This document shows positions 38,486 to 50,584 of a stretch of 64,000 bases of DNA, one piece after another. The stretch spans positions 196,844 through 260,843 of the forward strand of contig CAXHJY010000830.1 in assembly GCA_964016885.1 (NCBI GenBank). Direction: 5' to 3'. How positions within the stretch are numbered: the first letter of the stretch is position 1; each line of letters opens with the position of its first letter. Under the pieces are notes generated by a model, which made no database searches, was not told where the DNA came from, and worked only from the letters and a program-made list of their open reading frames with translations. This stretch comes from Eledone cirrhosa. Taxonomy: Eukaryota. The translations under genes were made by a program, and so were the position numbers.

Positions 38486-39258
38486 GAAGTGGTTACACAA
38501 CAGTTAGTTCACCATACTGAGTACAATTGTTTCACCTTAGCGGATCCTCAGCTTGTAATGGGCATGGTTATACAGAACAGGAAGGACAGCCGTACGAACG
38601 CGCATACGCAGAAACCCGTCATTTCACACAGGTAATGCTAAAATGCGTGCTAGAATGTGTAAGGGAAATAACTGCTAAAGTCCGAAAAGTTTTTAGTTGA
38701 TAAGAAAAAATATTGATGTTGTTACAATAATTCATTCAACCCGGAGCTTTGTAGCTATGCAATAGGTGTTTCGAGACGTGTGGACGACGTGTGAAAAATT
38801 CATATCTCGTGTTTAGGCAATCACTATTGCATAATCTCTTTAGAATATTTATTCGTTCGACAATACACAGTCCACACGAGGGATTTCCCCTTGCATATGG
38901 CTTGGACTTAGTGATGGCTGTCCATCTCGAGGAGTTACTTTCCCTGAAACCACCCTCTAATTAGTAAGGTAAGTATGTCCTTTGGCAGCCATCTTGTTAC
39001 CTATAGGCAGATCTCACACAATGCAGCCTCTACAGATGAATACTGCTTGATTATGGCTGACAACTGATGCAACCAAGACACCATAGTGAAAAAGCAATAT
39101 ATGGAACATTATATTATGTAACATTCTCTCATTATTTTAATTTATATTCCTTTGAAGTTGCGATGAGCTGCTCTGTTTTTTAAATATGTTAATTATTTTC
39201 AACTGAACCAGATCCATCATGATATATAAGTCATCTGATCCAGAAATATTATATGGAG
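38486..39258 (-). mobile_element. Probable Penelope-like element 3' UTR/pLTR fragment
   Basis: CpG-retaining island bounded by TA repeats with a hammerhead near its minus-strand 3' end; no convincing ORF. Confidence 0.5.
38520..38553 (-). ncRNA. Minimal type I hammerhead ribozyme
   Basis: Minus strand: ag-CTGAGGA-tccgctaaggt-GAAA-caattg-TA-ct, with a palindromic stem III. Confidence 0.7.
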
Positions 39259-39349
39259 TATATATATATATATGTATATATATATATACATATATATATA
39301 CATATATATACATACATATATATACATATATATACATACATATATATAC

Positions 39350-39402
<53 letters not shown>

Positions 39403-39457
39403 CATATATATATACATACATATATATACATATATATATATACATATATATACATAC

Positions 39458-39490
<33 letters not shown>

Positions 39491-39636
39491 CATATATATA
39501 CATACATATATATACATATATATATATACATACATATATATACATATATATATATACATACATATACATATATATATACATATATATATATACATACATA
39601 TATATACATATATATATATACATATATATATACATA

Positions 39637-39668
<32 letters not shown>

Positions 39669-39717
39669 CATATATATACATATATATATATATATATACA
39701 TACATATATGTACATAC

Positions 39718-39754
<37 letters not shown>

Positions 39755-39755
39755 C

Positions 39756-39792
<37 letters not shown>

Positions 39793-39793
39793 C

Positions 39794-39834
<41 letters not shown>

Positions 39835-39926
39835 CATACATATATATACATACATACATATACATATACATACATACATATATATACATACATACATATA
39901 CATACATATATATATATACATACATA

Positions 39927-39984
<58 letters not shown>

Positions 39985-40094
39985 CATATATATACATACA
40001 TATATATATATACATATATATATACATACATATATATATATACATATATATATACATACATATATATATATACATATATATATATACATACATA

Positions 40095-40178
<84 letters not shown>

Positions 40179-40187
40179 CATATATAT

Positions 40188-40231
<44 letters not shown>

Positions 40232-40253
40232 GCATATATATATATATACATAC

Positions 40254-40301
<48 letters not shown>

Positions 40302-40347
40302 GCATATATATATATATACATACATATATATATACATATATATATAC

Positions 40348-40378
<31 letters not shown>

Positions 40379-40404
40379 CATACATACATATATATATACA
40401 TATA
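39259..40404. repeat. (TA)n/(TACA)n compound microsatellite, about 1.1 kb
   Basis: Direct reading of the sequence. Confidence 0.95.
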
Positions 40405-48024: not shown

Positions 48025-48062
48025 TGAAAAGGAGGTCATATAACTGTCCATGCATTAATAAA

Positions 48063-48110
48063 TTGCTCCGAAGAATCCAAACCTCGGTTTGGAGGAAACA
48101 GCTGTAAGCA
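48063..48110 (+). ncRNA. Identical inverted copy of the hammerhead ribozyme
   Basis: Exact reverse complement of 45065-45112. Confidence 0.75.
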
Positions 48111-48315
48111 CAATAATGTTTTGAACAGTTCTTTGATTCTTATATTTCATATAACTGCTCTGTAAATCATCTGATGTTTTTACATTGAGCTACTTAACTT
48201 ACTGGTAATAAGGTAGTAATACATTACTGCCTACCACTATTTAGGGTGTGTGTAAAATACTTACAACTGCTTAAGGTTTTGTGTTTACATAACCATAAAT
48301 AGTATAACTAATACT

Positions 48316-48784
48316 ATACACATATATATACATATATATACATATATATACACATATATATATACATATATACACATATATATATACATATATATATACA
48401 TATATATACACACATATATACATATATATACACATATATATACATATATATATAAATATATATACACATATATATACATATATATACACATATATACATG
48501 TATATACATATATATATACGTATATATACATATATATATACATATATATACACATATATATACATGTATATACATATATATATACATATATATACATGTA
48601 TATACATATATATATACATATATATACATGTATATACATATATATATACATATATATACATGTATATACATACATATATATACATATATATACATGTATA
48701 TACATACATATATATACATATATATATACATATATATATACATATATATAGACATATATATATACAATATATATACACATATAT

Positions 48785-48841
<57 letters not shown>

Positions 48842-49020
48842 CATATATATATACATATATACATATATATATACATATATACATATATATATACATATAT
48901 ACATATATATATACATATATATATACATATATACATATATATATACATATATACATATATATATACATATATACATATATATATACATATATATATACAT
49001 ATATACATATATATATACAT
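48316..49020. repeat. TA-rich compound microsatellite
   Basis: Direct reading of the sequence. Confidence 0.95.
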
Positions 49021-49391
49021 ATCGCCTTCAAGATACACCCAAGGCTTGGGCCCCGTGCTATCCGTCCCATTCAAAAATCTAAATCGCAACTCATAACAAC
49101 AATACGGCACAATTATTTCACCTCAATCGGCCCTGCTCTCTTCAACATCACACCAGGACACGTCAAAACAGAAACTGACCACTGAAAATTCAAGAAGTCT
49201 TTGGACAAATTCCTCCAAGTAATCCCGGACAAACCACCCACACCCGGATATGTCTCCGCAAACAGTAATTCTCTTCTCGAATGGGCCATGGTGCCCAAAT
49301 CCTGAATTGAAAGACTTCGCCAGGTGGTGCTATTAAGTTAGACATGGCCTGGGCCAATACTGGCCAAAACATTTCAAAGTTATTCAAAGTT
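49021..49391 (+). mobile_element. 3' end of a CR1/L2-group LINE
   Basis: Translates HPRLG...SIGPALFN...[16 protein letters not shown]...[13 protein letters not shown]-rich 3' stem; tail (TTCAAAGTTA)x2. Confidence 0.8.
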
Positions 49392-49471
49392 ATATATACA
49401 TATATATACATATATATACATATATATATATATATATACATATATATATGTATACATATATATATGTATAC

Positions 49472-49518
<47 letters not shown>

Positions 49519-49756
49519 CATATATATACATATATATACATATATATACATATATATACATATATATACATATATATATATATATATACATATATATACA
49601 TACATATATATATATATATACATATATATACATATATATATATATACATATATATATACATATATATATACATACATATATACATACATATATATATACA
49701 TATACATGTATATATACATATACATATATATATACATATACAAATATATGTACATA

Positions 49757-49788
<32 letters not shown>

Positions 49789-49789
49789 C

Positions 49790-49852
<63 letters not shown>

Positions 49853-49907
49853 CATATATATATATACATATATATATATACATATATATATATATACATA
49901 TATATAC

Positions 49908-49962
<55 letters not shown>

Positions 49963-50009
49963 CATATATATATACACATATATATATATATATACATATA
50001 TATATACAC

Positions 50010-50107
<98 letters not shown>

Positions 50108-50125
50108 ATATATATACATATATAT

Positions 50126-50184
<59 letters not shown>

Positions 50185-50258
50185 CATATATATATACATA
50201 TATACATATATATAAATATATATACATATCTATATATATATACATATATATATACATA

Positions 50259-50295
<37 letters not shown>

Positions 50296-50493
50296 CTATA
50301 TCTATATATATATACATATATATACATATATATACATATCTATACATATATATACATATCTATATATATATATACATATCTATATATATATACATATATC
50401 TCTATATATATACATATCTCTATATATATACATATCTCTATATATATACATATCTCTATGTATATACATATATATACATATATATATATATAT
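49392..50493. repeat. TA-rich compound microsatellite
   Basis: Direct reading of the sequence. Confidence 0.95.
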
Positions 50494-50537
50494 GAAAAAG
50501 AACACAAGAGCGTCTACAACATCAAAAGATTTTTATT

Positions 50538-50584
50538 GGCTTACAATGTTTCTTCCTTACGTAACCGTAGGATTCGTCAGAGCT
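50538..50584 (-). ncRNA. Minimal type I hammerhead ribozyme with canonical core
   Basis: gct-CTGACGA-a-tcctacg(gtta)cgtaagga-a-GAAA-cattg-TA-agc. Confidence 0.8.

Follow-up and report, generated by a model that had tools for sequence, protein, structure and literature searches.

A 64,000-nucleotide (nt) stretch of the Eledone cirrhosa genome (contig CAXHJY010000830.1, positions 196,844 to 260,843; hereafter the window) carries four type I hammerhead-like ribozyme cores, HH1 to HH4. Very probably they are the hammerheads that three truncated insertions carry at their 3' ends. Two of these insertions have coding sequence of Hydra-clade Penelope-like elements (PLEs), and the third is likely such an element too. 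The finding is genuine, though ordinary in most respects. Its gain for annotation is two, probably three, Hydra-type Penelope families with hammerheads; three insertions in 12 kb are, by density alone, unremarkable in a repeat-rich invertebrate genome. The exception is a core reading CCGA instead of CUGA, which one family appears to keep.

Hammerhead cores in the window

The window is AT-rich, repeat-laden, animal-like DNA; masking of TA/TG microsatellite covered 11,477 of its 64,000 bases. Both strands were scanned with a type I hammerhead descriptor, and exactly four cores were found, all at the places given in an earlier note on this DNA. Dinucleotide shuffles of the microsatellite-masked window yielded a mean of 0.03 sites per shuffle, with one site in 6 of 200 shuffles and two sites in 0 of 200, a somewhat generous expectation, as the descriptor was composed after the cores had been seen. 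Relaxing the descriptor to one deviation in CUGANGA added no motif in the window, including the region behind a further PLE at 61097-62371. The cores are as follows.

HH1, 38551-38522 (motif span 38520..38553), minus strand: AG CUGAGGA U CC GCUAA GG U GAAA CAAUUG UA CU; stem I of 2 bp, stem II of 2 bp, U.U at 10.1/11.1, palindrome CAAUUG, triplet GUA; predicted cut 38522/38521

HH2, 45107-45069 (motif span 45065..45111), minus strand: UGCU CCGAAGA A UCCAAAC CUCG GUUUGGA G GAAA CAGCUG UA AGCA; stem II of 7 bp, A.G at 10.1/11.1, palindrome CAGCUG, triplet GUA, core CCGAAGA (U4C); predicted cut 45069/45068

HH3, 48068-48106 (motif span 48064-48110), plus strand: letters identical to HH2; predicted cut 48106/48107

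HH4, 50580-50542 (motif span 50539..50583), minus strand: GCU CUGACGA A UCCUACG GUUA CGUAAGGA A GAAA CAUUG UA AGC; bulged stem II of 7 bp, A.A at 10.1/11.1, 5-nt stem III CAUUG, triplet GUA; predicted cut 50542/50541

The GUA triplet is present in all four cores, as claimed earlier, and the cleavage coordinates that had been proposed for HH1, HH2 and HH4 are correct. Stem III, previously described as palindromic or near-palindromic, is perfectly self-complementary in HH1 to HH3; that of HH4 is a near-palindrome of 5 nt with a central U.U and a weak predicted self-duplex (-2.3 kcal/mol vs -11.1 kcal/mol for HH2). HH1 and HH4 conform to the core CUGANGA/GAAA/UH, from which HH2 and HH3 deviate by U4C. 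Positions 10.1/11.1 are unpaired in every core. Neither this mismatch nor U4C had been reported in the earlier note. All cores lie 36-48 nt before a (TA)n tract or element end. The Rfam hammerhead families gave no match at E<=10 in three focused scans (HH1; HH2 and HH3; HH4), and a scan of the whole window gave only microsatellite-driven miRNA matches among the 150 of 440 matches listed.

The 45-48 kb element

HH2 and HH3 lie one in each arm of an inverted repeat. Its arms (45022-45150 and 48025-48153) agree exactly over 129 bp and enclose coding sequence.

45022..46554, minus strand: 3' untranslated region (UTR) of 1.5 kb, read from the sequence, ending at a (TA/TG)n microsatellite

46555..48024, minus strand: open frame of 489 codons with the C-terminal half of a Penelope-like reverse transcriptase (RT; GLYRDD), a CxCX5C linker and a GIY-YIG endonuclease with CxxC and CxH

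48025..48153, plus strand: inverted 129-bp copy of the element's 3' end, carrying HH3 and fused to the truncated 5' end

48154..48165, plus strand: onset of a 3' extension ('tail'), on the HH3 arm only, recognised with a contig from public run X8 (loose end before 45041)

HH3 had been called a copy of HH2, and the two are indeed identical; they are, nevertheless, not separate insertions but both arms of one, so the four cores represent three independent events. The X8 contig extends the element's 3' end with the same letters that follow the HH3 arm, and we therefore read 48154..48165 as the element's tail.

The 489-codon frame begins abruptly inside RT motif B and is thus 5'-truncated. Out of 5,426 candidates, 533 matched it as homologues at E<=1e-3. 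Pfam gave no significant match on this frame, and no relatives of it were found in viral contigs. The succession of RT and C-terminal GIY-YIG endonuclease within one open reading frame (ORF) was read from motifs and homologues. The RT motif GLYRDD and the linker and endonuclease motifs (CNCRANRTC for CxCX5C, CNLCILE, and CQH in N...CQH) agree with the definition of the Hydra clade given in PMC8557442, and by these motifs the element can be placed in that clade. At the clade's N-terminal RWK and DKT motifs and its divergent RT4(B), the homologues show RWK/RWR, DKS/DKT and MGSxDxA, as do the published Hydra proteins, which were compared by eye. Neptune was rejected, as the linker fits Hydra, and so was Naiad, a first guess, as Naiads have an N-terminal endonuclease. 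Insertion at (TA)n is likewise seen, all three insertions ending at TA-rich tracts, an argument of modest weight because such tracts are very common in the window.

A second Hydra-type Penelope ORF lies at 61097-62371 on the minus strand (424 codons, 35-40% identical to the ORF at 46.5-48 kb), with no hammerhead in the 170 nt up to the next microsatellite. Facing it across a microsatellite is an N-terminal RT fragment of a Hydra-type element (60252-60662, plus strand; profile E 2e-29). The segment 60627-60717 recurs at 37988-38078 (92%).

The HH1 element

38739..38960, minus strand: C-terminal remnant of a Hydra-type GIY-YIG endonuclease, a 74-codon frame with W..I....Y......CxLC..E......LN.R.E.....H

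This remnant lies 188 nt upstream of HH1. It was matched by tblastn (E 7e-4), by a profile of relatives (E 5e-9 among 1,702 six-frame segments) and by hhalign (probability 93.6, E 2e-7). The earlier note had proposed that two of the motifs mark otherwise unrecognisable non-coding derivatives; for HH1 this is wrong, because the hammerhead is preceded by a Hydra-type endonuclease C-terminus, the order expected of the clade. The element is strongly 5'-truncated and ends at about 38486 at a (TA)4, 36 nt past the cut site. Directly behind it, separated by the (TA)4, stands a tRNA-derived repeat resembling a short interspersed nuclear element (SINE; 38305-38477, minus strand), in which the Rfam tRNA model scores 28.1 bits at 38409-38466.

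The HH4 piece

50494..50839, minus strand: non-coding piece of 346 bp with HH4, bounded by (TA)n tracts at 50403-50493 and 50840-50866

HH4 lies 48 nt from the end of the piece. A profile search found no coding remnant in 50501-52330, i.e. in the 1.8 kb upstream of HH4. The last 110 nt of the HH4 and HH2 ends align with a score of 46, against a maximum of 37 in 500 shuffles, a score to which the core itself contributes. Over the whole 3' region the alignment of HH2 and HH4 is not significant (9 of 100 shuffles score as high), nor is any other whole-region alignment among the elements' 3' regions. The claim that the motifs belong to three families holds, yet the 3' ends of HH2 and HH4 are related. 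Judged from these sequences, the piece is probably what 5' truncation left of the 3' UTR in a Hydra-type family akin to that at 45 kb. As the UTR of the latter measures 1.5 kb, a sister family's element, if cut this short, would likewise appear non-coding. That HH4 marks an unrecognisable non-coding derivative is unproven. An approximately 160-bp tandem duplication (51785-52106, 79%) without coding or ribozyme features lies upstream of the piece.

Related hammerheads in metagenomes

An alignment of 30 proteins led to 77 metagenome loci, taken from the best 80 of 393 matches, on which the counts of loci and of relatives' motifs below rest. In 43 of the loci the sequence runs on for 300 nt or more behind the ORF; the descriptor found a sense hammerhead in 28 of these and an antisense one in 4. 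The 41 unique motifs have U.U (23), G-C (9), G.U (5), A-U (2), U.C (1) or A.C (1) at 10.1/11.1, the cleavage triplets GUA (29), GUC (9) or GUU (3), and cores starting with CUGA (39), UUGA (1) or CCGA (1). The CCGA core occurs in two unrelated loci with Hydra-type hammerheads, L073 (1354-1401, plus strand) and L051 (2420-2471, minus strand, antisense), which suggests that U4C recurs in the Hydra clade. An exact HH2/HH4-type pattern had no match in viral contigs and none in metagenome contigs. Seven loci (L003, L028, L034, L035, L041, L070 and L004) hold Hydra-type elements of full length; each of their two terminal repeats carries a hammerhead, and the two lie roughly 2.4-2.9 kb from one another.

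Thirty-four of the 41 motifs were aligned; five near-duplicates and two motifs with a 4-nt stem III were excluded. In this alignment 91.2% of cells are paired (61.5% when shuffled) and 10 of 12 pairs show two-sided change, a covariation that is partly circular because a symmetric stem III and pairing at the innermost positions were required by the descriptor. A model built from these 34 motifs, with no window sequence included, ranked HH2/HH3 (22.1 bits, E 6e-4) and HH1 (20.4 bits, E 0.002) as the top three of 22 matches in the window. HH4 came fifth (12.8 bits, E 0.44), after one coreless match. Applied to 41 loci, the model gave 19 matches, i.e. one training motif and 18 matches in 15 other loci, some of them near-identical to training motifs. 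The link to Penelope that the earlier note had drawn is thus supported: the 45-48 kb ORF and the HH1 remnant can be placed in the Hydra clade, and the relatives' model puts HH2/HH3 and HH1 first.

Variation among copies of the 45-kb family

Four public runs (four samples from three studies; run X1 may be the window's own source) were mapped to 45036-46600. Contigs or reads covered 30, 29, 17 and 30 of 30 bins of 45022..46554; the differences described here are among the 40 of 183 that were listed. Positions 45073 and 45074 change jointly from CAGCUG to CAAUUG at a depth of 47.1 of 72.2 in X1 (two contigs) and in one X8 contig. Another X8 contig has the 45073 change alone (CAGUUG, wobble-compatible), and X5 has neither change (0 of 6.78). 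Of 265 minus-mate reads in X18, 248 have the change at 45073 and 223 that at 45074; of 87 plus-mate reads, 39 and 5 do.

At position 4 of the core (45106) there is no difference among those listed. Contig 2 of X1 (depth 39.1) and records 9 and 10 of X5 span this position with 0-1 differences, located at 45222; they carry C4, since their differences are all accounted for there. A diverged subfamily is represented by record 11 of X5 (12 differences, contig 45083-45150) and by an X1 contig of depth 13.3. Its branch point is 45113, which is letter 31 of the contig, and by 31-mer graph logic from contig branch points it appears to share the 30 letters 45083-45112, C4 included. These data suggest that several copies of the 45-kb family share CCGA while the stem III palindrome changes in concert (CAGCUG/CAAUUG).

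Predicted dimers and probable inertness of the copies

The model in which PLE hammerheads would act as dimers through the palindrome, also given in the earlier note, is supported. Two HH2 monomers are predicted at -23.4 kcal/mol, and their double hammerhead reaches -33.7 (co-fold minimum -34.3), so that in a parent element arranged in tandem HH2 would have the shape needed for a competent dimer. The HH4 homodimer is predicted at -18.7 kcal/mol (co-fold minimum -20.4; two monomers -15.6). The double form of HH1 is unfavourable (-3.2 vs -14.4 kcal/mol) because its core pairs with its own 3' flank.

Going by published work, two motifs of an active parent element would pair via the stem III palindrome and cut after GUA, and the hammerhead might serve in trimming or circularising a tandem precursor RNA. 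Insertion would be target-primed, into (TA)n, with 5' truncation and inversion. The copies in the window are probably inert, because there is one copy per family and strand, HH1 is predicted to misfold and HH2 would be buried: in a read-through RNA it would form a 129-bp duplex with its own antisense arm.

Discussion

Hydra-clade PLE hammerheads are the closest known system. In PMC8557442 they accompany a GIY-YIG endonuclease at the C-terminus with CxCX5C linker, CxxC and CxH, and (TA)n insertion. They lie near the 3' end, often have U.U at 10.1/11.1 and have a symmetric stem III, often with an unpaired centre; an inverted 5' copy gives an antisense hammerhead. According to Craig et al. 2021 (PMC8557442), an inverted 5'-truncated copy beside the 5' end and an optional tail are typical of PLE insertions, and Penelope-13_HM has one sense and one antisense hammerhead with an inverted 5' copy. 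File S2 of that paper lists Hydra hammerheads such as Hydra-1_Obim from Octopus bimaculoides; no core in the window equals the Hydra-1_Obim motif, so the families differ. By our own count, its table has U.U in 14 of 26 Hydra rows and CUGA in 26 of 26, with CCGA in 0 of 26 and A.G or A.A at 10.1/11.1 in 0 of 26. The 1.5-kb 3' UTR and the 5-nt stem III of HH4 also set the window's elements apart. In Octopus vulgaris, recently active Penelope-like families are listed in PMC13282606, in the relevant part of which ribozymes are unmentioned.

The minimal hammerheads of metazoan PLEs (Cervera and De la Pena 2014, PMC4209133) are likewise type I, with a short stem I, a palindromic stem III and a dimer model, and are mostly single motifs from truncated elements. 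In a truncated PLE of the Cotesia bracovirus a second motif lies on the opposite strand at the 5' end (legend of Fig. S4A). Their consensus differs by a bulged nucleotide after A9 and by G10.1-C11.1; the symmetric mismatches seen here (U.U, A.G, A.A) do not match it, and a mismatch is the norm for the Hydra type. Here stem III is also longer and the triplet is GUA. Animal non-LTR (long terminal repeat) retrozymes (PMC7229834; bioRxiv 10.64898/2026.07.22.740005) share a type I hammerhead in a short non-coding unit, such as the HH4 piece. Theirs are tandem repeats with a hammerhead per unit, whereas in the window there is no tandem array around any motif and three of the four motifs sit on coding elements. 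The term retrozyme-like, used in the earlier note, therefore fails for want of a tandem array.

Several observations weigh against our assignment to Hydra-type families. The distance from stop codon to HH2 is 1448 nt, far above the 73-525 nt at which related ORFs are followed by sense motifs. In the literature, Hydra elements mostly stay <3 kb (PMC8557442), a tendency rather than a diagnostic trait, and the truncated copy (45022-48024) already measures 3.0 kb, because of its 1.5-kb UTR. The N-terminal motifs RWK and DKT are lost here by truncation and are seen in homologues only. A.G and A.A at 10.1/11.1 occur in 0 of the 41 relatives' motifs. HH4 lacks a coding remnant, i.e. the linked RT/endonuclease coding sequence, as expected of a short 5' truncation, and its model score lies below that of a coreless chance match. 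Finally, 217 of 265 minus-mate reads of X18 have a further difference at 45072; the palindrome is lost in them, save where a partner position outside the listed differences has changed as well. These reads have 4 read starts and probably stem from one locus.

How else might the four motifs be explained? Chance matches to a short consensus would agree with the silence of the Rfam models and with the unremarkable monomer folding z-scores of the 51-61-nt cores (-0.2 to -1.6). The excess of cores over the shuffled expectation, their uniform closeness to element ends and the PLE coding sequence adjoining three of the four make this a negligible prospect, and for HH1 to HH3 chance is already refuted by context. 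Cleavage of a minus-strand host pre-mRNA, with an influence on a host gene, is highly improbable; the earlier note had envisaged such an RNA with several potential cut sites. Three cores do lie on the minus strand, and the GCU/AGC stem I common to HH2 and HH4 allows a heterodimer (-20.9 kcal/mol). This heterodimer is only 1.4 kcal/mol better than the monomers (-19.5), the antisense arm (-227 kcal/mol for the sense/antisense arm duplex) lies between HH4 and HH2, and HH1 forms no stem I with the other cores. Moreover, a minimal PLE hammerhead did not cleave as a monomer and cleaved little as a dimer (PMC4209133; a review concurs, PMC6765202), and there is one copy per family and strand, with HH2 predicted to be masked. 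Nor was a host exon found in the window: 209 stop-free segments of at least 52 amino acids gave, against Pfam, only a mariner helix-turn-helix (HTH), a C2H2 finger and one match at E 0.0097 (RGS-like, 31259-31432), which reads as junk and was rejected; a splice-signal scan gave nothing convincing and one Atlas look-up no exon, searches that an exon-free long intron would escape. For HH4 there is an unlikely alternative to random truncation: the piece could be a non-autonomous element in its own right, some 350 bp long and moved by Hydra-type machinery, either SINE-like or a solo monomer of a non-LTR retrozyme. It would account for a non-coding unit neatly delimited by (TA)n on both sides and for the absence of coding sequence upstream; the size falls within the 150-450 bp of animal retrozyme monomers (PMC7229834), and a 2026 preprint argues for an origin of retrozymes from the pLTRs of PLEs (bioRxiv 10.64898/2026.07.22.740005). 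Yet the piece is a single copy with no tandem unit in the window, its hammerhead is minimal and not canonical, and the 45-kb element, which is coding, has a 3' end that aligns with its own and a UTR so long that short truncations would be non-coding. A truncated UTR of a related Hydra-type family is the explanation that we prefer.

The CCGA core is harder to judge. It may be no more than decay: the ribozyme would be dead, and several copies would have inherited it since insertion can do without cleavage. This is a credible account to which we give somewhat less than even weight. U4C considerably lowers activity in vitro (PMC3088659), HH2 has an additional A.G at 10.1/11.1, and for an anole PLE catalytic mutants were without effect on insertion in vitro (PMC11167929). 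The anole work also saw no RNA ends where the hammerhead would cut. Decay sits badly with the compensatory change of the palindrome among copies, with the retention of 45083-45112 including C4 that contig branch points indicate for the 12-difference subfamily, and with the recurrence of CCGA in two relatives. U4C is, furthermore, tolerated in viroid-like RNAs: the substitution occurs in hammerheads of viroids and viroid-like RNAs (PMC3088659, PMC9608096, bioRxiv 10.64898/2026.09.16.752053), on which the literature is divided, one paper finding U4C to be without effect on cleavage. These share the same core substitution but reside in circular RNA replicons (type III where stated), in contrast to the type I dimer-type motif of a retrotransposon. 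In our literature search we found no Penelope hammerhead with U4C or CCGA; Luense et al. 2017 may describe such variants, so absence from print is not established. More tentatively, and with doubt outweighing belief, one Hydra-type family may have fixed U4C and the purine-purine mismatch at 10.1/11.1 across diverged subfamilies, with the palindrome kept by compensation. If so, the family would have a double hammerhead that nature has throttled, or one under selection for dimerisation of the RNA and not for its cleavage, and would offer a ready natural test of what Penelope hammerheads are for. Their function is unsettled, given that catalytic mutants did not impair insertion in vitro (PMC11167929), and a family that keeps its palindrome despite U4C would help to separate selection for dimerisation from selection for cleavage.

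Other repeats in the window

A 120-bp imperfect palindrome (37882-38001, 87% self-complementary) ends a short repeat flanked by (TA)n. Copies of long interspersed nuclear elements (LINEs) with a PHD finger inside the RT frame lie at 1922-3379, 40400-43500, 59625-60253 and 63417-64000, RVT_1 and PHD being matched in 1925-3379. Their 3' ends are met again, in the form of short repeats, at 5071-5298, 38187-38304 and 43928-44270. A dispersed repeat family of about 220 bp, with no hammerhead core, is found at 5999-6221, 24381-24772, 25071-25191, 30136-30283 and 34067-34161, with a tandem pair at 24.4-24.8 kb. Finally, at 18570-19324 and 20350-20577 there are a diverged inverted repeat (67%), resembling a miniature inverted-repeat transposable element, and a mariner-type HTH remnant (PF17906, E 0.0018).

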